A stretch of 64,000 nt of DNA from assembly GCA_030390025.1 (NCBI GenBank), contig CM059431.1, forward strand, positions 106,766,001-106,830,000, in the 5' to 3' direction. The notes under the pieces were generated by a model. That model was given only the letters and a program-made list of their open reading frames with translations. It made no database searches and had not been told where the DNA came from. Position 1 is the first letter of the stretch. Every line of letters begins with the position of its first letter. Shown here one piece after another: positions 4,220 through 62,665 of the stretch. This DNA is from Squalus acanthias (lineage: Eukaryota). Both the position numbers and the translations under genes were made by a program.

Positions 4220-4975
4220 CGTGTCTATAACATAAAAAGTGGCTGAGATGTAGCTTTATCTTCACTCCCTTTTGGATTGGCACCTCTGGGCTCCAAAGCG
4301 AATCACAAATTAACAATGAAGCTCAATTTTAATACAAAAATAAATAGGCTTTTAGTTAATTTTCAGATTAAAATGGTAACCTATAGAATCATAGGCTTGA
4401 TTTTAACTCCTCCTATCTGGTGGAAACCAGGCCGGGGGTGGGGGGGTGCAGTTAAAATGGAATGGGAGACTTACCCACTCCTGTCCCGATCTGATCTATC
4501 TGACTGCAATTTTGAATCGCAGACGGCAAGGACACTGCCCCTGAGTCGGGGTGGGTTCTCTTTAAATATGCAGATCGGGCTCCCATGACATCATCGGAGC
4601 GCGAGCAGCCATTTTAACCTGTGGCCTGCGCAGGGGGAGCAGTGACAGCGTCCTCGACATGCCAGACCTTCCGGGTACAGATGCCAGGGTCCAGCAAGAC
4701 AAGTTTTCATCGTTAATTTTAGTTTCCTCATGCACCAAGAGGAGCAGGAGTGCTCCACCAAGCCTCACAAGGCAACCTTGCACCTCTCCTAGCCTGGGCA
4801 TCATCCCCATCCCCTCCCGCACCCGGGATTCTCCTCCCAGAGCACTTATTTTGTGCCGGGGGCCGTCCGCCTATCTCCCCTAGCGACGGCTTCTGCCGCC
4901 CAACAGTTTGATAGAAGAAAATTGGGCAGGGTGTAAAGCAGGCTGACGATTCACTATCGCCCATTTTTGCACTAG

Positions 4976-5457
4976 ATTGATCCCTGGGATGAGAGGGTTG
5001 TCCTATGAGGAGAGATTGAGTAGAATAGGCCTATACTCTCTGGAGTTTAGAAGAATGAGAGGTGATCTCATTGAAACATATAAGATTCTGAAGGGGATTG
5101 ACAAGGTAGGTGCTGAGAGGTTGTTTCCCTGGCTGGAGAGTCTAGAACCAGGGGGCATAATCTCAGGATAAGGGGTCGGCCATTTAAGACTGAGATGAGG
5201 AGAAATTTCTTCACTCAGAGGGTTGCAAATCTTTGGAATTCTCTACCTCAGAGGGCTATGGAGGCTCAGTCGTTGAGTATATTCAAGACTGATATCGATA
5301 GATTTTTGAATTCGAAGGGAATCAAGGGATATGGGGATCGGGCGGGAAAGTAGAGTTGAGGTCGAAGATCAGCCATGATCTCATTAAATGGCGGAGCAGG
5401 CTCGAGGGGCCGAATGGCCTACTCCTGCTCCTAATTCTTATGTTCTTATGTCTTATG
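4976..5457 (+). mobile_element. CR1 LINE 3' fragment
   Basis: Encodes IPGMRGLSYEERL...LEFRRMRGDLIETYKI, matching the ORF2 C-terminus at 35848-38715; CR1 3' UTR and TTCTTATG tail repeats. Confidence 0.92.
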
Positions 5458-17536: not shown

Positions 17537-18322
17537 TACATAGAATTACATAGAGTTTACAGCACAGAAACAGGCCTCCTCCCAACCCTACTTCATCTAA
17601 CTTGATCAGCATGCCCTTCTATATGAGGAGAGATTGGGTCGATTGGGCTTATACTCGCTGGAGTATAGAAGAATGAGAGGGGATCTCATCGAAACATATA
17701 AAATTCTGACACGTCTGGACAAACTAGATGCAGGAAGAATGTTCCCGATGGTCGGAGAGTCCAGAACCAGGGGTCATAATCTAAGGATAACGGGTAAGCC
17801 ATTTAGGACAGAAATGAGGAAGAATTTCTTCACCCAGAGAGTGGTGAACCTGTGGAATTCTCTACCACAGAAGGTAGTTGAGGCCAAGTCATTAAATATA
17901 TTCAAGAATGAGTTAGATATATTTCTTAAAGTTAAAGGTATCAAGGGATATGGGGAGAAGGCAGGTACAGGGTACTGAGTTTGGATGATCAGCCATGATC
18001 TCATCGAATGGCGGAGCAGGCTCGAGGGGCTGAATGGCCTACTCCTGCTCCTATCTTCTATGTTTCTATGTTTCCTTTCTCCCTCATATGTTTATCTAGC
18101 TTCCCCTTAAATGCATCAATGCTATTCGCCTCAATTACTTCTTGTGGTAGCGAGTTCCACATTCTAACCACTCTGGGTAAAAAAAAGATTCTCTTGAATT
18201 CCCGATGGGATTTATTAGTGTTTATCTTATATCTAGTTTTGGATTTCCCCACAAGTGGAAACATCTTCTCTGCGTCTACCCGATCAAAGCCCTTCATAAC
18301 TTTAAAGACCTCTATCAGGTCA
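17537..18322 (-). mobile_element. CR1 3' fragment interrupted by an opposite-strand CR1
   Basis: MKGFDRVDAEKMFPL...RVVRMWNSLP peptide at 18073-18322; its tail is at 17537-17620. Confidence 0.8.
17621..18072 (+). mobile_element. CR1 3' fragment (young subfamily)
   Basis: LGLYSLEYRRMRGDLIETYKIL...GYGEKAGTGY, closely similar to the ORF2 end at 38715. Confidence 0.92.
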
Positions 18323-18392: not shown

Positions 18393-18758
18393 AAGAACAT
18401 TAGAACATAAGAATTAGGAGCAGGAGTAGGCCATATGGCCCCTCGAGCCTGCTCCACCATCAATAAGATCAAGATTGATCTTCGACCTCAACTCCACTTT
18501 CCCGCCCGATCCCCATATCCCTTGATTCACCTAGAGTCCAAAAATCTATCGATCTCAGCCTTGAATATACTCAATAACTCAGCATCCACCAGCCCTTTGG
18601 GGTAGAGAATTCCAAAGATTCACAACCCTCTGAGTGAAGAAATTCCTCCTCATCTCAGTCTTAAATGACCGACCCCTTATCTTGAGACTATGCCCCTTCG
18701 TTCTGGACTCTCCAGCCAGGGGAAACAACCTCTCAGGATCTATCCTGTCAATCCCCCT
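18393..18758 (-). mobile_element. CR1 3' fragment
   Basis: Reverse complement of the CR1 ORF2 end and 3' UTR. Confidence 0.88.
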
Positions 18759-31446: not shown

Positions 31447-34400
31447 TACTGTACCCCATCCAACTCCCCGCGCTTTCACACACACACTGTACCCCATCCA
31501 ACTCCCCACCCTTTCACACACACTCTGTACCCCATCCAACTCCCCGCCCTTTCACACACACTCTGTACCCCATCCAACTCCCCACCCTTTCACACTCTGT
31601 ACCCCATCCAACTCCCCGCGCTTTCACACACACACTGTACCCCATCCAACTCCCCACCCCTTTCACACACACACTGTACCCCATCCAACTCCCCACCCTC
31701 ACACACTCTGTACCCCATCCAACTCCCCGCCCTTTCACACACACACTGTACCCCATCCAACTCCCCGCGCTTTCACACACACACTGTACCCCATCCAACT
31801 CCCCGCCCTTTCACACACACACTGTACCCCATCAAACTCCCCGCCCTTTCACACACACACTGTACCCCATCCAACTCCCCGCACATTCACACACACTCTG
31901 TACCCCATCCAACTCCCCACCCTCACACACACTGTACCCCATCCAACTCCCCGCGCTTTCACACACACACTGTACCCCATCAAACTCCCCGCCCTTTCAC
32001 ACACAAACTGTACCCCATCCAACTCCCCGCCCTTTCACACACACACTGTACCCCATCCAACTCCCCGCCCTTTCACACACACACTGTACCCCATCCAACT
32101 CCCCACCCTCACACACACACTGTACCCCATCCAACTCCCCGCGCTTTCACACACACACTGTACCCCATCCAACTCCCCGCACATTCACACACACACTGTA
32201 CCCCATCAAACTCCCCGCCCTTTCACACACACACTGTACCCCATCAAACTCCCCCCCCTTTCACACACACTCTGTACCCCATCCAACTCCCCACCCTCAC
32301 ACACACACTGTACCCCATCCAACTCCCCGCACATTCACACACACACTGTACCCCATCCAACTCCCCGCGCTTTCACACACACACTGTACCCCATCAAACT
32401 CCCCGCCATTTCACACACACACTGTACCCCATCCAACTCCCCGCACATTCACACACACACTGTACCCCATCCAACTCCCCGCCCTTTCACACACACTGTA
32501 CCCCATCCAACTCCCCGCCCTTTCACACACACACTGTACACCATCCAACTCCCCACCCTTTCACACACACTCTGTACCCCATCCAACTCCCCGCGCTTTC
32601 ACACACACACTGTACCCCATCAAACTCCCCGCGCTTTCACACACACTCTGTACCCCATCCAACTCCCCGCGCTTTCACACACACACTGTACCCCATCCAA
32701 CTCCCCACCCTTTCACACACACTCTGTACCCCATCCAACTCCCCGCCCTTTCACACACACACTGTACCCCATCCAACTCCCCACCCTTTCACACACACTG
32801 TACCCCATCCAACTCCCCACCCTCACACACACTCTGTACCCCATCCAACTCCCCACCCTCACACACACTCTGTACCCCATCCAACTCCCCACCCTCACAC
32901 ACACACTGTACCCCATCCAACTCCCCGCACATTCACACACACACTGTACCCCATCCAACTCCCCGCACATTCACACACACTCTGTATCCCATCCAACTCC
33001 CCACCCTTTCACACACACTCTGTATCGCATCCAACTCCCCGCCGTTTCACACACACTGTACCCCATCCAACTCCCCGCACATTCACACACACACTGTATC
33101 CCATCCAACTCCCCGCACATTCACACACACTGTACCCCATCCAACTCCCCACACATTCACACACACACTGTATCCCATCCAACTCCCCGCACATTCACAC
33201 ACACGCTGTATTCCATCCAACTCCCCACCCTCACACACACTGTACCCCATCCAACTCCCCGCACATTCACACACACTGCACCCCATCCAACTCACCGCAC
33301 ATTCACACACACTCTGTACCCCATCCAACTCCCCGCCCTTTCACACACACACTGTACCCCATCCAACTCCCCGCCCTTTCACACACACACTGTACCCCAT
33401 CCAACTCCCCACCTTCACACACACTGTACCCCATCCAACTCCCCGCACATTCACACACACTGCACCCCATCCAACTCACCGCACATTCACACACACTCTG
33501 TACCCCATCCAACTCCCCGCCCTTTCACACACACACTGTACCCCATCCAACTCCCCGCCCTTTCACACACACAGTGTACCCCATCCAACTCCCCACCTTC
33601 ACACACACTGCACCCCATCCAACTCCCCGCCCTTTCACACACACACTGTATCCCATCCAACTCCCCACCCTCACACACACTGTACCCCATCCAACTCCCC
33701 GCCCTTTCACACACACTCTGTACCCCATCCAACTCCCCGCACATTCACACACACACTGTACCCCATCCAACTCCCCGCACATTCACAAACACACTGTACC
33801 CCATCCAACTCCCCACCCTTTCACACACACTCTGTACCCCATCCAACTCCCCACCCTTTCACACACACACTGTACCCCATCCAACTCCCCGCACATTCAC
33901 AAACACACTGTACCCCATCCAACTCCCCACCCTTTCACACACACACTGTACCCCATCCAACTCCCCGCCCTTTCACACACACACTGCACCCCATCCAACT
34001 CCCCGCCCTTTCACACACACACTGCACCCCATCCAACTCCCCACCCTTTCACACACACACTGCACCCCATCCAACTCCCCAACCTTTCACACATACACTG
34101 CACCCCAACTAACTCCCCAACCTTTCACACACACGCTGTACCCTATCCAACTCCCCAACCTTTCACACACACACTGCACCCCATCCAACTCCCCACCCTT
34201 TCACACACACACTGTACCCCATTCAACTCCCTAACCTTTCACACACACACTGCACCCCATCCAACTCCCCAACCTTTCACACATACACTGCACCCCAACT
34301 AACTCCCCAACCTTTCACACACACACTGCACCCCATCCAACTCCCCAACCTTTCACACATACACTGCACCCCATCCAACTCCCCAACCTTTCACACACAC

Positions 34401-34595
34401 ACTGCAACCTAACTAACTCCCCAACCTTTCACACACACGCTTTACCCCATCCAACTCCCCAACCTTTCACACACACACTGTACCCCATCCAACTCCCCAC
34501 CCTTTCACAAAGACACTGCAACCTAACTAACTCCCCACCCTTTCACACACACACTGCACCCCATCCAACTCCCCACCCTTTCACAAAGACACTGA
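31447..34595. repeat. ~3.1-kb minisatellite, ~36-41 bp unit CTGTACCCCATCCAACTCCCCGCCCTTTCACACACACA
   Basis: About 80 tandem units with a variable (CA)n tract, read directly. Confidence 0.97.
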
Positions 34596-35569
34596 CATGG
34601 ATTTCTCTCTGAATTACTGTCCATTTTGGGGCAGACTCGGGGGTGGGAGGTCTAGATCGGGGAGGTGTTGTCTTGATCCAGTTGGGGGTGATCTCGATTG
34701 GGGTGGGGGGAGGTCACTATTGGGGTTTGAGGGGGTACTCGATCGGGGGTGGGGGGAGCAGGCGGTCTCAATCCTTCAGAGGAGGCCGCCACCAAAAAAG
34801 GGGAGGTTAAAAGAAATACATACTAGACCGTGGAACCAGGCGCAGCAAGGGTCATCCACCCATCGCCACATCAAATCTGCGGACTGCTCTTGGGCACCGC
34901 TTTCCCCTGTCCCGAATGCCACCCTCTCCCCCACTCCCACGGACTCACCATTGTTTCTTGGCCAGTGTGCCAGTGGGCTGATTGGGCTATTTTCCCTCCC
35001 CGACCAAACCAACCCTCCCTTCCGCAACCGACATGCTGCCTCTGGGGCTGCAACGAAAACCCGCAGCTGTCCGGTGCTATACGGGAAATCTGAAATACAA
35101 GCACCAAAACGCTAGCCTCATGATTAAAAAGACACCAGGGTACATTTTTTCGAGAGTCTAGCATGGACGTTTGGTTGATGAGTGAGCAAATTGGAGAATT
35201 GGGCACCTGATTCTCCAAACCGCACTGCCATCAAGTGCGGCTTCAAGTTGGGAGCAGAATCCTGCAAAATGTACCGCACCATCTTGAGCAAATCCAACGT
35301 TTACCATCTGGTAGAGTTATTTCCATTTGACACTTATATAAGGGCATGTTAGGGTTCTCAAGGGAGAAATATCCAGCTCAGCTCTTTAAAAAAATACATA
35401 TGTCTTTGTATAAAATCAGATAGTTTTGTATAATTTTTATATAATGTATTTTCTTGCTTGTATTCCAGAATGTATTGTAAAGGTTTATTATTGACTTCCC
35501 CTAAGGCTCCGCAAAGTTACTCAGTGACTGGCTGAGTGATACAGGCTCGGAAGTTTCAGGTTCAATCAA

Positions 35570-35773
35570 GTGCCACGTGCTAGTAAGAGTACAGAGAACA
35601 GGATAGTTAGGCTAAATACGTGGCTTGAGCAGTGGTGTAAATTTTTGAGGCATTGGAACCAGTTTTGTGGTAGGTGTGACCTATACAAAAGGGACGGTCT
35701 ACACCTGTGCAAAGATGGAACTGATGTTCTCGGGGTAATTTTTGATAAAGCAGTTCGGGAGCATTTAAACTAG
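35570..35773 (+). pseudogene. CR1 ORF1 C-terminal fragment (SGNH esterase-like domain)
   Basis: VPRA...LNTWLEQWC...FLRHW...DLYKRDGLHL...LN-stop; the DGLHL motif is typical of CR1 ORF1 esterases. Confidence 0.85.
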
Positions 35774-35847
35774 TATGGCAGGGGGCTAGAAACCTATGTA
35801 GTGAAATAGAGGAAAGTGAAAGGCAGACAGAAATAAATGGTAAAAGG

Positions 35848-38715
35848 GTGAGAAACAAAAAACAAAGGGCCAAACCAATTCATAAAAAATGTGAGCATAA
35901 AAAAAGCCTGAGGGTTTTATACCTTAATGCGAGAAGCATCAGGAACAAGGTAGATGAATTAGCTGTGGAAATAGAGGTTAATAATTATGATCTAATTGGG
36001 ATTACGGAAACATGGTTGCAGGGTGAGCAGGGCTGGGAGCTTAACATACAGGGGTATTCAGTATTTAGGAAGGATCGACAAAAAAGAAAGGGAGGAGGGG
36101 TAGCATTGCTGGTAAAAGAAGGGATAAATGCAATTGAAAGGAAGGATATTAACTCAGTTAATACAGAATCTATATGGGTGGAGCTAAGAAATAGCGAGGG
36201 GCGAAAAACATTAATAGGAGTGGTATATAGGCCTCCAAATAGTAAAATAGAGGTTGGGGAGGGCATCACGAGGGAAATTAGAGAAGCGTGCAATAAGAGC
36301 ACAGCTGTCATCATAGGTGACTTTAACTTACATATAGATTGGAATAGCCTAATCAGTAAAAATAATGAGGAGGAGGAATTCCTTGAGTGTTTAAGGGATG
36401 GTTATCTGGATCAATATGTCGAGGAACCAACTCGGGAACAGGCTATATTGGACTGGGTACTGTGCAATGAGAAGGGACTAATTAGTAATCTTGTTGTACG
36501 GGGACCCTTGGGTCAGAGCGATCATAACATGATCGATTTCTCACTCGAAATGGAGAGCGAAGAAATTGACTCAGATACTAAGGTCCTGAATTTAAACAAG
36601 GGGAATTATGATGCCATTAGACGGGAACTGAGTAGGTCTGATTGGACAACGTTCCTGGGAGGACTGGAGGTAGATAAACAATGGCAAGCATTTAAAGATA
36701 GAATGACAAAATTGCAAAAATTGTTTATACCAATCTGGCATAAAAGGAAATCTAAAAAGGTGACTCAACCGTGGATAACAGGGGAAATTAGAGACAGCAT
36801 AAAATCCAAAGATAGGGCGTATAAAATAGCCAAAAAAAGCGCCAGAGCGGAAGATTGGGAACAGTTTAAGATAGAGCAAAGGAGGACAAAGGGCTTAATC
36901 AAGAGGGGCAAAATAGCTTACGAAAGCAAGCTGGCGGAAAATATAAAAACTAACTCCAAAAGCTTTTATAAGTATATCAAGAGGAAAAGACTGGTGAAAA
37001 CCAAAGTTGGCCCATTGCAGTCAGATACGGGGGAATATATACCGGGAAATAAAGAAATGGCAGACCAACTAAATGCATACTTTGGGTCAGTCTTTACGAA
37101 GGAAGACACAAAAAACCTCCCTGGGATATCGGGAAAAATAGGGACATTTGCAAAGGAGGAACTGACGCAAGTCAATATCTCTAAGGATATGGTGTTAAGG
37201 AAGCTAAAGGGATTGAAGGCGGACAAATCCCCAGGGCCTGATAACATGCATCCTAGGGTGCTGAAGGAGGTGGCCCTAGAGATAGCGGATGCACTAAGTA
37301 TGATTTTTCAGAATTCATTAGACTCGGGAACAGTGCCCATGGATTGGAGGGTAGCTAACGTTACCCCACTATTCAAAAAGGGGGGTAGGGAAAAAGCAGG
37401 TAATTACAGACCTGTAAGCCTTACATCAGTTGTGGGCAAAATGCTGGAGTCCATCATTAAGGATGAAATAGCGGAGCACTTAGCAAATGGGGACAGGATA
37501 GGACAGAGTCAACATGGATTTACAAAGGGTAAATCGTGCTTGACTAATCTATTGGAATTTTTTGAGGGAGTAACTGGTAAAATAGATGGGGGAGAGCCAG
37601 TAGATGTGGTGTACCTGGACTTCCAAAAGGCCTTCGATAAGGTCCCACATAAAAGATTAGCAGGGAAAATTGAAGCTCATGGGATAAAGGGGAAAGTATT
37701 GACGTGGATAGAGAACTGGCTGTCAGATAGAAAACAGAGAGTTGGAATAAACGGCTCATTTTCTGAATGGCAGGCAGTAACAAGTGGGGTACCACAGGGA
37801 TCTGTCCTGGGTCCCCAGCTGTTCACAATTTACATTAATGACCTGGATCAGGGAGTCGGATGCAGCATTTCCAAATTTGCAGACGACACTAAACTAGGAG
37901 GGGGGGTGGGCTCAGAGGAGGAGACCAGGAAGCTCCAGAGCGATTTGGACAGACTGGGTGATTGGGCGGATAAATGGCAGATGCACTATAATGTGGACAA
38001 GTGCGAAGTTATCCACCTTGGGTGCAGGAACGGGAGGGCAAATTATTATTTAAATGGCAATAAATTGGGAGAGGGGGAAGTACAGAGAGACCTGGGTGTT
38101 CTTGTACACCAGTCACTGAAGGCGAGCATGCAGGTGCAACAGGCGATCAAGAAGGCAAACGGTATGCTGGCCTTCATAGCAAAAGGGTTGGAATACAGGA
38201 ACAGGGATACCTTGCTGCAGCTGTACAGGGCACTGGTGAGACCACACCTCGAGTACTGTGTACAGTTTTGGTCGCCTCATCTGAGGAAAGATGTTCTTGC
38301 CATGGAGGGGGTGCAGCGGCGATTCACCAGGCTGATACCAGGAATGGCGGGATTGACCTATGAGGAGAGACTATGTAGTTTAGGGATGTACACACTGGAG
38401 TTTAGAAGATTGAGAGGGGACCTCATAGAAGTGTATAAAATTCTGACAGGTCTAGACAGACTAGATGCAAAAGGAATGTTTCCCTTGGCGGGTGAGAACA
38501 GAACCAGAGGACATAATTTAAGGATAAGGGCTAAACCATTTAGGACAGAAATGAGGGGGAATTTCTTCACTCAGAGGGTGGTGAACCTGTGGAACTCATT
38601 GCCACAGAGGGCAGTGTACGCCAGCTCATTAAATATATTTAAGAGGGAATTAGATATATTTCTACAGGCAAAAGGGGTTAAGGGTTACGGAGAGAAGGCG
38701 GGGACGGGATACTGA
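35848..38715 (+). CDS. CR1 ORF2: APE endonuclease + reverse transcriptase
   Basis: YLNARS, GITETWL, GDFN, SDH (APE); NYRPVSLTS, YLDFQKAFDKV, GVPQGSVLGP, KFADDTK (RT); 955 codons without a stop; frame open from 35749. Confidence 0.96.
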   Translation: MRNKKQRAKPIHKKCEHKKSLRVLYLNARSIRNKVDELAVEIEVNNYDLIGITETWLQGEQGWELNIQGYSVFRKDRQKRKGGGVALLVKEGINAIERKDINSVNTESIWVELRNSEGRKTLIGVVYRPPNSKIEVGEGITREIREACNKSTAVIIGDFNLHIDWNSLISKNNEEEEFLECLRDGYLDQYVEEPTREQAILDWVLCNEKGLISNLVVRGPLGQSDHNMIDFSLEMESEEIDSDTKVLNLNKGNYDAIRRELSRSDWTTFLGGLEVDKQWQAFKDRMTKLQKLFIPIWHKRKSKKVTQPWITGEIRDSIKSKDRAYKIAKKSARAEDWEQFKIEQRRTKGLIKRGKIAYESKLAENIKTNSKSFYKYIKRKRLVKTKVGPLQSDTGEYIPGNKEMADQLNAYFGSVFTKEDTKNLPGISGKIGTFAKEELTQVNISKDMVLRKLKGLKADKSPGPDNMHPRVLKEVALEIADALSMIFQNSLDSGTVPMDWRVANVTPLFKKGGREKAGNYRPVSLTSVVGKMLESIIKDEIAEHLANGDRIGQSQHGFTKGKSCLTNLLEFFEGVTGKIDGGEPVDVVYLDFQKAFDKVPHKRLAGKIEAHGIKGKVLTWIENWLSDRKQRVGINGSFSEWQAVTSGVPQGSVLGPQLFTIYINDLDQGVGCSISKFADDTKLGGGVGSEEETRKLQSDLDRLGDWADKWQMHYNVDKCEVIHLGCRNGRANYYLNGNKLGEGEVQRDLGVLVHQSLKASMQVQQAIKKANGMLAFIAKGLEYRNRDTLLQLYRALVRPHLEYCVQFWSPHLRKDVLAMEGVQRRFTRLIPGMAGLTYEERLCSLGMYTLEFRRLRGDLIEVYKILTGLDRLDAKGMFPLAGENRTRGHNLRIRAKPFRTEMRGNFFTQRVVNLWNSLPQRAVYASSLNIFKRELDIFLQAKGVKGYGEKAGTGY

Positions 38716-39585
38716 ATTGGAGGATCAGCCATGATCTCATTAAATGGCGGAGCAGGCTCGAAGGGCCGGATGGCCTACTCCTGCTCCTATCTTCTATGTA
38801 TCTATGTATCTATGTAAGATCAGGAAGTCCCCAGACCCAATCCCTTCTGTGCTATATTGGCTTTTATCAGCTGGGTGTTAGTAGAACCATGTTGTTGTAG
38901 GATAGGGAGGGGAAAACTGGCCGGGATTCCTGCCTCTGATCGTGAGCCAATAACCCCTGGCAGACGTGTATTGGCATCAGGCGTGAATCAGATCACCCCC
39001 GATCTCACTGAATGGCGCAACAGGCTCGAGGGGCTGAATGGCCGACTCCTGTCCCTATGTTCCCAGATCAGGCTTGTCTGTGATGCTCTTTCATGTTGAA
39101 TAGCTTACCAATACCGACTGTCAAGGTTCACATGCATGTACCGAAATCTAACATGAGACCGTGGAACCACTGCGAGGAGTCCATGCCTTCAGGAGGGGAG
39201 AGGCGAAGGAGAAAATTGGTGACAGAAAGAAGAGATCTCATATCACCGCTCTGGGCCCTATGATAATTGGCACAAGCTGAAACCCCATTTTGGTTTAACA
39301 TTCTGTTTCTGCTCCAGCTAAAGTATTTATACCTTATCATGAGTTCTTTAACCCTAACAGTAGGGTCACAGGCAGCGCCCACTCTCACAAGCTGTTGTCC
39401 TTAGCGTATACATATGCTGCAGCTACAACACAGCAGGACATGTCAAGCATAATGCCAGAAAGGAATTTGCTTTTCACAGAAAATGCCGATATTCGAAAAG
39501 GAATTCTTCTTTACTTCTAATTGTCGCAGTTGCATTTGAGGAGAAGCTGGATAAGCACATGATGGAGAAAGGAATAGAAGGATAT

Positions 39586-40968: not shown

Positions 40969-41635
40969 AGGTACAGAAAATAATCAAAAAGGCTAATGGA
41001 ATGCTGGCCTTTATATCTAGAGGACTAGAATACAAGGGGGTAGAAGTTATGCTGCAGCTGTACAAAACCCTGGTTAGACCACACCTGGAGTACTGTGAGC
41101 AGTTCTGGGCACCACACCTTAGGAAGGATATATTGGCCTTGGAGGGAGTGCAGCGTAGGTTTACCAGAATGATACCCGGACTCCAAGGGTTAAGTTACGA
41201 GGAGAGATTACACAAATTAGGGTTGTATTCCCTGGAATTTAGAATGTTAAGGGGTGATCTGATCGAAGTTTTTAAGATATTAAGGGAAACAGATAAGGGA
41301 GATAGAGAGAAACTATTTCCGCTGGTTGAGAAGGCTAGGACCATGGGGGCATAGTCTAAAAATTAGTGCCAGACCTTTCAGGAGTGAAATTAGGAAACAC
41401 TTCTACACACAAAGGGTGGTAGAAGTTTGGAACTCTCTTCCGCAAATGGAAACTGATGCTAGATCAATTATTAATTTTAAATCTGTGATTGATAGCTTTC
41501 TGTTAACCAAAGGTATTAAGGGATATGGGCCAAAGGCGGGTATATGGAGTTAGATCGCAGATCAGCCATGATCGCATTGAATAGCGGAACAGACTCGAGG
41601 GGCTGAATGGCCTCCTCCTGCTCCTATGTTCCTAT
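40969..41635 (+). mobile_element. CR1 3' fragment
   Basis: KKANGMLAFISRGLEYK...LVRPHLEYC peptide and 3' UTR. Confidence 0.92.
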
Positions 41636-52024: not shown

Positions 52025-54074
52025 GAAGAAACAGAAAGGGTGAATTTCCACGGGGGCTCTCTCCCCCTCTCTCTCTCTCCCCTGTCCTGGATAAAATGGG
52101 CAGGATTGGGCAGAGAGGAGGGAGAACCCTGGCGGAGAATCTAATCCCATGATCTTTGATGAGCCGAATGGCCTCTTCTCATCCTTGACTTTTCTGAAAA
52201 TAAAATCGATCGGTCTCTCGGAATATTTTCCACCGGTGTTTAAAAAATGCATCTCAAATGTAATTGGGAGTGATATAATACATCTGTAATGCAACCACTA
52301 TTCCCTTAAGTGTTATCATAACAGATTGAATATCCTTTCTTTGCTGCAGTGTGCTAACTTTTATTTTTAAGCTCACGATACTGAACAAAATTAAAAACAT
52401 ACACACAATAGCAGACATTGCCTTTTCATATCGGACAATGTCATCAGGCTATCTGTCATCCGCTGCTGTAGCATCAGTTTCAACAATAAGAGATTCACCG
52501 ATGAGACCATGCAGTAAGGTCACAGACACCCTCGCCTGTTTGCTCTGACCTATCCTTTTACACACCGCATGCCCCACAGGGACGCTTCAATCACAGACAA
52601 TCCCTGCTTCCACACTCGCCCTGCTGATACCTGGCCTGCCTCTCTCCCACACAGATATAGACAAAATGTCATCGACAACATGACGGAGAGGAGGATGAAA
52701 AAAATCAAGCCTCTGTCTCCACGTACAATCTGCCAGGGCGCTTGTTTTCATCTCTCCTCGCTGCAGCTGTCCATCAATGTCAATCAATTTGTGCTGGAGG
52801 AAATCACGGAGCTGGCTATTGATTTAATTTAGGCGAGATCAGATAAAACTCAATTATGTAATCGCTGCTCAGGGAAGCAAGGTTGGAGAGACAAAAAGAC
52901 CGAAAGGTTTGCAGGTGAAAATGTGAGGTTGATGGATTTACCGAGTGTCCCCAAACGATTATTATGCAATTATGTAAATGATTCACTTAACTTGATTTAG
53001 CCAAAGGACAAAATGTGTAACATAAATGCAGACCTTTTTTCCTCCCAGAGAAAATCGATATACTCTCAGCACAGAGCTGCCTCTTAATGCAGTGGGTTTA
53101 ATGTAAAGGGACACACTAATACGCGCCTTTCAACTTGGGTATCATTCTGGGCACCGACTGTGCCTAGTAAGAGAGAAACGGTGTGTGAAAGAGCAAGACA
53201 CAGAAGGAAACAGTGATGAGAAAATAAAGGATGTGAAAGTGAGTGGAAAAAAGAGGCAGGAAAATGAGCAAAGGAAATAATAATTGCATTGACCCCCAGG
53301 GACTGTTGTTTTTTTTTTAGGAAGGATAATGTAAGCTGCCAAGGTTTTGAACCTCGAAAAAGTAGCTAAAGTCCTGGTGGATGTTTGCACTTGAGCAGAT
53401 TCTGAAGGCAAGGTAATTTGGTAATTGCTACACACAATGGGAGAAAGCGAAAGCAAAGATATCTGTTTCTTAGTGAAACATTTTGATTTGCAGTTGTATT
53501 GACAGTCGCACGCCGTACAAATAGCAAACATTTTAACACAGGCCGACAAAAATTACTTTAATGACTTAAAAGTTTGAAGCCATGGAATAGTTGGACACAG
53601 GATGGTGCCTCAGATCCCACCCACGGTGATTGGCCGAATTCTGCTGTGCGGTCAAGGGCAGTGGTCCAGCAGAAGCCAGATGGTTCCACACAAGGAGGGA
53701 GGGAAAGTCAGAGAGCTAGTCACTCCATGCTGCTCTTCTATATCTCGCAGCCCAGTTACACAGTGGTACTTGCAGGTGCCTGAGAATTGATTGTCAATCT
53801 GCCCTATTGGTTGCAGTCCAGTGCGTGTAATGGGGAAATCTGAAGAAGTAAAGGAAAAATGTACAAAATAATAAACTTTGCTCATTTTTAATGCTCTTAA
53901 TTATCAGCCAGTAGACTGCATTATCTGCAGGATAGTATAGGTTACAACCTTTCTAATAACCTGCACACCTAATGTATGCATGTAGTTTGGCTTACTGCTT
54001 GGCAATACTTGGCAGCTGTTTGGTACTGTGGGAGTACCTTCACCACACGGACTGCAGCCAAGGTTCAAGAAGAA

Positions 54075-54695
54075 GGCATAGAATATAAGAGCAGGGAGGT
54101 TATACTTGAACTGTATAAAACACTAGTTAGGCCACAGCTAGAATACTGCATACAGTTCTGGTCACCACATTACAGGAAGGATGTGATTGCACTAGAGAGG
54201 ATACAGAGGAGATTTACGAGGACGTTGCCTGGGCTGGGGAATTTTAGCTATGAGGAAAGATTGGATAGGCTGGGGTTGTTTTCTTTGGAACAGAGGAGGC
54301 TGAGGGGAGACCTAATTGAGGTGTATAAAATTATGAGTGTCCTAGATAGAGTGGATAGGAAGGACTTATTTCCCTTAGCAGAGGGGTCGATAACCAGGGG
54401 GCATAGATTGAAAGTAATTGGTAGGAGGTTTAGTGGGGATTGGAGGAGAATGTTTTTCACCCAGAGGGTGGTGAGGGTCTGGAACTCACTGCCTGAAAGG
54501 GTGGTAGAGGCAGAAACCCTCATCACATTTGAAAAGTACTTGGATATTCACTTGAGGTGCTGTAACCTACAAGGCTACGGACCAAGTGCTGGAAAGTGGG
54601 ATTAGGCTGGATAGCTCTTTGTCAGCCGGCACAGACAAGATGGGCTGAATGGCCTTCTTCTGCGCTACAAATTTCTATGATTCTATGATTCTATG
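54075..54695 (+). mobile_element. CR1 3' fragment nested in another LINE tail
   Basis: GIEYKSREVILELYKTLVRPQLEYC peptide; (TTCTATGA)n tail; flanking AAGAAGGC repeat; host LINE tail at ~54025-54074 and 54696-54793. Confidence 0.9.
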
Positions 54696-57490: not shown

Positions 57491-58170
57491 AGAACAAGAA
57501 CATAAGAAATGGGAGCAGGAGTAGGCCATACGGCCCCTCGAGCCTGCAATAAGATCATGGCTGATCTTCGACCTCAACCCCACTTTCCCACCCGATCCCC
57601 ATATCCCTTGATTCCCTTAGTGCCCAAAAATCTATCGATCTCAGCCTTGAATATACTCAACAACTGAGTGTCCACAGGCCTCTGGGCTAAAGAATTCCAA
57701 AGATTCACCACCCTCTGTGAAGAAATTTCACCTCATCTCAGTCCCAAATGGCTGACCCCTTATCCTGAGAGTATGGCCCCTCAGGAGTATTCTCCAGCCA
57801 GGGGAAACAACCTCTCAGCATCTACCCTGTCAAGCCCTCTAAGAATTTTATACGTTTCAATGCGATCATCTCTCATTCTTCTAAACTCCAGAGAATATAG
57901 ACCCATTCTACTCAATCTCTCCTTGTGGGACAGCCCTCTCATCCCAGGAATCAATCTAGTGAACTTCAGTTACACCACTCCAAGGCAAGTATATCCTTCT
58001 TTAAGTAAGGAGACCAAAGTGTGGCCTCACCAAAGCCCTATATAATTGCAGGAAGACTTCCTTACTCTTATACTCCAACCCACTTGCAATAAAGACTAAC
58101 ACGCCATTAGTCTTCGTAATTGCTTGCTGTACCTGCATGCCAACTTTCTGTGGTTCGTGTACAAGAATAC
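57491..58170 (-). mobile_element. CR1 3' fragment
   Basis: Reverse complement of the CR1 ORF2 C-terminus and 3' UTR. Confidence 0.88.
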
Positions 58171-58206
58171 CCAATGCTGAGCTCCTGCTGGTAACACAAC
58201 ACTAGT

Positions 58207-62527: not shown

Positions 62528-62665
62528 TAGAACATAGGAACATAGGCCACAGGAACAGGCCATTCACCCCCTCAAACCTGCTCCGCCATTCAATTAGATC
62601 ATGGCTGATCTGCACCTCAACTCCATTTACCTGCCTTAGCTCCATATCCCTTGATACCCTTACCC
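62528..62665 (-). mobile_element. CR1 3' UTR fragment
   Basis: Reverse complement of the CR1 tail. Confidence 0.8.

Follow-up and report, generated by a model that had tools for sequence, protein, structure and literature searches.

A probable programmed -1 frameshift site at the ORF1/ORF2 junction of a CR1-type LINE in Squalus acanthias

The LINE copy and its ORF1/ORF2 junction

The stretch of DNA analysed here (the window; 64,000 nucleotides of contig CM059431.1 of the Squalus acanthias assembly GCA_030390025.1) carries, on its + strand at 35569-38815, one copy of a long interspersed nuclear element (LINE) in which the end of a first open reading frame (ORF1) overlaps the start of a second (ORF2). 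An earlier note on this sequence had proposed that ORF2 is made as an ORF1-ORF2 fusion by programmed -1 frameshifting rather than by reinitiation, and the comparative evidence gathered below supports that proposal, which we regard as probable. The features of the copy, all on the + strand, are as follows.

35569-35773, +, ORF1 3' remnant, the C-terminus of an SGNH esterase with a DGLHL motif (hidden Markov model (HMM) match, E=2e-05), ending ...HLN and stop
35749-38715, +, ORF2 frame, 988 codons open in the -1 phase, with a 22 nt overlap with ORF1 before the ORF1 stop
35764-35770, +, slippery heptamer U_UUA_AAC in ORF1 phase, at the same place in relatives
35770-35925, +, lysine-rich linker from the shift site to the endonuclease, with near-cognate codons GUG (35848) and CUG (35908)
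35771-35773, +, UAG stop of ORF1, immediately following the heptamer (read as Leu in the -1 frame; UGA in two relatives)
35775-35789, +, AUG with a 4-codon mini-ORF, 1 nt past the ORF1 stop and not in the ORF2 frame
35781-35785, +, G-run at +11 to +15 after the heptamer, candidate stimulator, encoding Gly in the ORF2 frame
35926-36525, +, APE endonuclease domain (Pfam PF03372, residues 60-259)
36529-36531, +, first in-frame AUG of ORF2 (codon 261), just behind the SDH motif of the endonuclease
37384-38016, +, reverse transcriptase domain (Pfam PF00078, residues 546-756)
38716-38815, +, short 3' untranslated region (UTR) and octamer-repeat tail, with three units at 38792-38815

The letters of the junction are as the earlier note had read them: ORF1 ends CAT TTA AAC TAG, the -1 frame (F K L V W Q G ...) runs open from 35749 through ORF2, and no in-frame ATG precedes that at 36529. 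Seven proteins from a ray and a frog show a matching [FV]KLxxxG before the endonuclease. The heptamer itself is not rare, TTTAAAC occurring seven times on the + strand of the window and five times on the - strand, so that a single occurrence proves little; the excess over chance lies in where the heptamer stands, and in which phase, from one relative to the next.

The same note had taken the site for an ORF1/ORF2 junction, and the junction is real, but ORF1 is incomplete here: what is left of it encodes the esterase C-terminus in some 67 codons. Reads from other copies diverge from the window sequence before about 35569, and the window copy lacks 15 nt (in frame) behind 35637 that other copies contain. 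On its own, the ORF1 remnant gave no Pfam esterase match, and a protein search with it returned three candidates, none significant; the ORF1s of full-length relatives match Lipase_GDSL_2 and PDB 4c1b, and the remnant aligns to these complete ORF1s. Because of the 5' truncation, the window copy cannot make ORF1 or use the shift site itself, and its junction documents the arrangement in the parent element.

A short 3' UTR, an end formed by a tandem octamer repeat and 5' truncation are features of CR1 elements. The window element shows an endonuclease and a reverse transcriptase without RNase H (none in ORF2 by Pfam scan), an esterase-type ORF1, an octamer tail and a truncated 5' end, and is best explained as a young, 5'-truncated CR1-type LINE copy; no target-site duplication was found around it. 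The best named protein relatives are from a ray, in keeping with a host among the cartilaginous fishes. For the relatives described below the label CR1 is provisional, as these are unnamed loci and the reverse transcriptase tree contains no named CR1 references.

Reading frame of the junction in related elements

To collect relatives, 18 ORF2 sequences were aligned and two endonuclease motifs were used to fetch loci, a procedure blind to both the junction and the heptamer. The best 80 of 258 loci confirmed in metagenome contigs, all 15 of the 15 that were confirmed in genome contigs (prokaryote assemblies containing animal DNA) and the window itself made up 96 loci. Fixed rules set aside 34 of these: 11 for want of a 75-codon ORF upstream, 10 in which the start of the APE domain was unmatched, seven with too little 5' DNA and six with a broken APE domain. 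Among the 62 loci scored, ORF2 lay in the -1 phase relative to ORF1 in 48, in the +1 phase in 11 and in the same frame in three. Clustering at 70% identity gave 50 representatives, with 40 in the -1 phase, seven in +1 and three in frame, so that the -1 phase noted in the window extends across families. In several of the loci in other phases (L001, L037 and L083) ORF1 is broken but the heptamer can still be seen. The tree of loci was a quick version with weak deep branches, containing unnamed loci only, and no order of events was drawn from it.

No relatives were found with a single APE protein against viral and genome contigs, with alignment A1 against viral contigs, with protein P0003 against genome contigs, or in the plasmid search. 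P0003 is a ray protein called 'hydroxyacid oxidase 2 isoform X1', in which a CR1 esterase is joined in frame to an APE domain; the name is probably a misannotation. DNA-pattern scans gave either 0 matches or 120 and 117 bacterial or phage stretches, which were treated as chance and stand outside all counts. The loci L081-L095 are animal LINE contigs lying in prokaryote genome assemblies and point to host-DNA contamination; P0008 is similar.

Conservation of the phase among young copies had been set beforehand as a test capable of refuting the proposal. We mapped 1,861 RNA reads from one run (depth about 90 at the junction) and 717 contigs from another on 35480-36040 (two raw DNA runs, X21 and X22, gave 3 and 0 reads). 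No indel is listed at the junction in either set, the list of indels comprising just the 15-nt difference at 35637 and, in three contigs, the loss of 1 nt at 35899, and the phase is thus kept among close copies. None of the 40 listed substitutions lies within 35713-35852, a count beside which stand 68 further, unlisted variant rows. The RNA reads fall about equally on both strands, and so are no proof of authentic CR1 transcripts.

Slippery heptamers at the junction

Within the overlap of the two frames, 28 of the 40 representatives with -1 phase contain a strict in-phase X_XXY_YYZ heptamer, where 2.7 would be expected if heptamers were as frequent as they are in ORF1 codons upstream. Their frequency there was 19 in 10,131; inside the overlap, heptamers were found at 29 of 1,548 in-phase positions versus 7 of 3,016 out-of-phase positions. 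Their spelling varies: A_AAA_AAC in 14 representatives, U_UUA_AAC in six, U_UUU_UUA in five, G_GGA_AAC in two and A_AAA_AAU in one. A passage of PMC5009743 lists three of these among the most shift-prone heptamers. Elsewhere in the elements the same dipeptides are seldom spelled as a heptamer (Leu-Asn in 4 of 195 instances, Lys-Asn in 10 of 147 and Phe-Leu in 10 of 121). A separate codon-usage calculation (30 sites, 5 expected) was not used as a test, the sites having been chosen for having a heptamer.

The position of the heptamer depends on the type of ORF1. Esterase-type ORF1s end in U_UUA_AAC and the stop, in U_UUU_UUA, one codon and the stop, or in G_GGA_AAC and the stop. With the end of the esterase located by HMM, 18 of 25 esterase-type loci have a heptamer that precedes the ORF1 stop by 0 or 3 nt, as do 8 of 15 when the ten seed loci of the HMM are removed; for stops overall the figure is 56 of 4,354. 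The seven esterase-type loci without this arrangement comprise three with a nearby in-phase heptamer (L001, L006 and L028), three decayed copies and L009, which looks intact, is in the +1 phase and has none.

Elements with a non-esterase ORF1 (a PHD finger was found in four of the seven scanned) carry A_AAA_AAC inside ORF1 rather than at its end. In the 14 representatives of this kind, the -1 frame continues without a stop for 165-231 nt beneath ORF1 past the site and is closed 3-87 nt upstream of it. This long open frame supports a shift, since reinitiation after the stop would not need it. When the place was located by a protein-motif anchor alone, the site was spelled xCA AAA AAC in 11 of 16 readable rows (19 found, three unreadable); of the other five, L043 and L066 have a heptamer eight codons upstream, and L059-L061 keep the homologous ORF1 motif with a +1 phase and no heptamer.

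In a third group, what seems to be one homologous place is occupied by G_GGA_AAC (L027), G_GAA_AAC or G_GGG_GAA/C. The -1 phase is kept with G_GGG_GAA/C in L011, L012, L013, L015, L018, L024, L032 and L049, where it may be a non-canonical shift site; these looser sites were defined after inspection and are only suggestive.

The earlier note had also stated that ORF2 has no AUG before its endonuclease domain, and a consensus AUG there would have refuted the proposal. None is conserved: in 25 of the 40 representatives no AUG stands between the endonuclease and the in-frame stop upstream of it, and in the remaining 15 an AUG lies 2 to 91 codons upstream. By itself this absence is weak evidence, because in L1 the AUG of ORF2 can be replaced by any sense codon, according to the part of PMC1965478 concerned with the ORF2 start. 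The argument is carried by the exchange of one heptamer for another and by the length over which the -1 frame stays open in the overlaps.

Candidate stimulators

The earlier note saw no obvious pseudoknot downstream, and the 90 nt after the heptamer of the window indeed fold no better than shuffled sequences (-5.9 kcal/mol, z +0.4), by a folding method that does not explicitly predict pseudoknots. Two other features of the window-like junctions may take its place. In all eight of these the stop directly follows the heptamer, being UAG in six and UGA in two (L035 and L048). The same eight, which are eight of the 12 U_UUA_AAC junctions, have GGG(G/A)G exactly at +11 to +15, with a pairwise identity of 0.92 over the G-run versus 0.29 and 0.35 in its flanks (five of the eight junctions). 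The four U_UUA_AAC junctions of another branch are without the G-run, and five of the eight window-like ones are more than 60% alike. As a stimulator the G-run is a lead only, a candidate suggested by its fixed spacing, and it also encodes Gly in the ORF2 frame. When a pairing partner for it was sought inside the element, in a search made without a control, nothing better than loose duplexes came out.

In the U_UUU_UUA subgroup of five sequences (L005:1095-1118, L084, L010, L065 and L083), an 8-pair hairpin is predicted 11 nt after the heptamer. Its pairing is 95%, two of its pairs show compensatory changes on the two sides, and 15 of 500 shuffles scored as high; for five related sequences, this is modest evidence of a structure.

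Frameshifting and its alternatives

Judged from its sequence, the junction passes every test for a -1 shift site except that for a 3' structure, and we consider it likely that programmed -1 frameshifting yields an ORF1-ORF2 fusion. On the message of the full-length parent, translation would mostly end at the UAG of ORF1, yielding the esterase. In a minority of ribosomes the Leu and Asn tRNAs paired with UUA AAC would slip one base back onto UUU AAA, and these ribosomes would go on to read a 52-codon linker, the endonuclease and then the reverse transcriptase, giving a fusion in the manner of Gag-Pol. The pause would be provided probably by the adjacent stop codon and perhaps by the G-run at +11, not by a pseudoknot. 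The slippage itself, its rate, its stimulator and the role of the fusion as a working enzyme are what we infer from these comparisons.

Several points weigh against this interpretation. Bare heptamers usually shift weakly, and 3' structure is lacking both in the window and in most relatives (mean z about -0.4, and -0.4 in the U_UUA_AAC group). Twelve of the 40 representatives with -1 phase have no strict heptamer, 11 of them having only the looser G_GAA_AAC or G_GGG_GAA/C, and 15 of the 40 do have an in-frame AUG before the endonuclease, at scattered distances. The loci L009 and L059-L061 are apparently intact, with +1 phase and no heptamer, so that the -1 shift mechanism is not universal and ORF2 must be reached in another way there. 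Unscorable loci make up 34 of the 96, and constancy of the heptamer among young copies, at the level of single bases, is unproven. The elements are, moreover, related (12 clusters at 50% identity), and p-values therefore overstate their independence; for this reason we rely on the pattern and not on p-values.

The most serious alternative, though one that we think unlikely, is that ORF2 is a separate product of termination-reinitiation past the ORF1 stop, at an AUG or at any or a near-cognate codon, the heptamer being a relic or a minor route. The tolerance of L1 ORF2 for other start codons (PMC1965478) and the use of UAAUG by SART1 (PMC2699510), as these sources describe them in part, give it precedent. 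Three of the eight window-like junctions (L001, L002 and L035) have an in-frame AUG 2 nt past the stop, well placed for reinitiation and a further point against frameshifting; the upstream AUGs in 15 of the 40 representatives, and in the window an in-frame CUG at 35908 just before the endonuclease and a GUG at 35848, with a purine at -3, could also serve. Reinitiation leaves unexplained, however, the -1 phase in 40 of 50 representatives, the alternation of four canonical heptamers in phase, and the 165-231 nt of open -1 overlap in 14 representatives, several of which have their stop 17 nt before the first endonuclease motif. In addition, the only nearby AUG in the window (35775) is out of frame, and a stop-adjacent in-frame AUG of the SART1 type is not present. 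Frameshifting and reinitiation could coexist.

The remaining explanations place the change of frame in the RNA or deny it altogether. The conserved sequence might be a splice acceptor (pyrimidines followed by YAG) for a spliced ORF2 message, as U_UUA_AAC_UAG and most U_UUU_UUA_G sites do end in AG after a T-rich stretch. This is very improbable, since no joint was found among the 1,861 RNA reads and 717 contigs on 35480-36040, and the 12 rows with the best support, beside which stand 143 more, include no loose end at 35773; the stop is UGA in L035 and L048, L005 and L065 have no AG after the U-run, and the A_AAA_AAC sites are not acceptor-like. Just as improbable is polymerase slippage on a homopolymer, adding a base in the RNA and so producing an in-frame message. 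Runs of A6 and U6 occur in two of the heptamer types, and the ray gene model P0003 reads ORF1 and ORF2 in one frame, although this may reflect a mutation of that copy or an error of gene modelling. Against such slippage, neither U_UUA_AAC nor G_GGA_AAC is a homopolymer, the A-runs of 14 representatives consist of exactly six A followed by C, and the RNA reads show no insertion at the junction at a 3% threshold. Both splicing and RNA-level slippage are thus unlikely. The idea that ORF1 simply ends in Leu-Asn with an inherited phase, to which the shared ancestry of the elements and the commonness of the heptamer in DNA (12 in the window) lend some colour, is largely refuted and the least probable of all, because the same dipeptides are rarely heptamer-spelled elsewhere and the terminal residues vary (LN, FLx, GN, KN) while the slippery pattern stays.

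Frameshifting remains the favoured explanation of the junction. A broader claim would be that -1 frameshifting is the ancestral, clade-wide route of CR1-type elements to their reverse transcriptase, with at least two ORF1 architectures (esterase and PHD) and interchangeable heptamers, that the active enzyme is a Gag-Pol-like fusion, and that in the window group the shift is driven by the adjacent stop and a protein-bound G-run at +11, with no RNA structure. This we offer tentatively, as a claim somewhat more apt to fail than to hold in its entirety.

Relation to known systems

The closest parallels are retroviral gag-pol and coronavirus 1a/1b. As in the sites of Rous sarcoma virus, human immunodeficiency virus type 1 (HIV-1; U_UUU_UUA) and infectious bronchitis virus (U_UUA_AAC) given in the relevant part of PMC5009743, an in-phase heptamer of the same spelling ends the structural ORF, and the polymerase ORF follows in the -1 frame without a start of its own. 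Unlike these viruses, the present element is a retrotransposon of the non-LTR type (lacking long terminal repeats) with an APE endonuclease, in which no protease domain that might release ORF2 was found, and no pseudoknot or hairpin was found at the window site. The predicted hairpin of the U_UUU_UUA subgroup recalls the HIV-1 cassette, here in a LINE. For the window group a different viral comparison offers itself: pea enation mosaic virus and the porcine virus PRRSV are described in a section of PMC5009743 as having, between them, a stop-dependent shift site (in which the identity of the stop can be changed) and a protein-bound motif 11 nt 3' of it. The likeness is positional only, the viral motif being C-rich and that of the window G-rich, with no binding protein known.

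Among non-LTR elements, Dictyostelium TRE5-A and TRE3-A are said to need a -1 frameshift for ORF2, in a figure legend of PMC5911963 that cites descriptions from 1992 and 1998. These too are APE-type elements, but they belong to another element group and host, and the legend gives no heptamer. In Drosophila, the ORFs of R1B overlap by 14-59 bp in the -1 phase, and those of R1A are in -2; the passage of PMC2718515 reporting this states the phase alone and names neither a slippery site nor a mechanism. A frameshift is needed for HeT-A gag, but one within gag that yields no reverse transcriptase, and the single passage of PMC5009743 that uses the term non-LTR concerns HeT-A and TART only. L1 and SART1, so far as the portions of PMC1965478 and PMC2699510 concerned with ORF2 describe them, share with the present element a two-ORF message and the problem of access to ORF2, but give a separate ORF2 protein, whereas here there is a -1 overlap and no conserved start codon. 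The ORF1 of zebrafish ZfL2-1 (PDB 4c1b; described in part of PMC3905857) is an SGNH esterase of the same class, matching alignment A2 with E=1.7e-32, and PMC3905857 does not contain the word 'frameshift'.

We found no proposal of CR1 frameshifting in the full texts searched, a scope outside which most subscription papers and the primary CR1 descriptions lie; PMC1925062, PMC5006619, PMC4255032 and PMC5633606 likewise yielded nothing that bears on the question. CR1 elements are among the most widespread LINEs of vertebrates. The translation of ORF2 has been worked out in few two-ORF LINEs (L1 and SART1), in both of which reinitiation gives a separate protein. If the frameshift is real, the CR1 reverse transcriptase would be made fused to the ORF1 protein, which would fix the ratio of the two and tie the enzyme to the ORF1 particle. 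Host factors with an effect on frameshifting would then also act on CR1, the annotation and cloning of its ORF2 would change, and a large number of natural shift sites would become available, and with them what may be a stimulator free of RNA structure.

Other repeats in the window

Seven further 3' fragments of related LINEs lie in the window, at 4970-5451, 17622-18074, 18401-18727, 40983-41631, 54064-54501, 57500-58173 and 62528-62610. They are 66-82% identical to the element described here, and none extends to the junction. By eye, the sequence at about 38985-39065, 170 bp past the tail of the LINE, resembles its 3' UTR and is possibly the tail of a short interspersed nuclear element (SINE) that has borrowed a CR1 end. 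A strongly C-rich tandem array of a 38-bp unit (84 copies, 90% matches) occupies 31448-34594 and ends about 1 kb before the LINE, and a G-rich array of about 70 copies of a 14-bp unit occupies positions 1-965.

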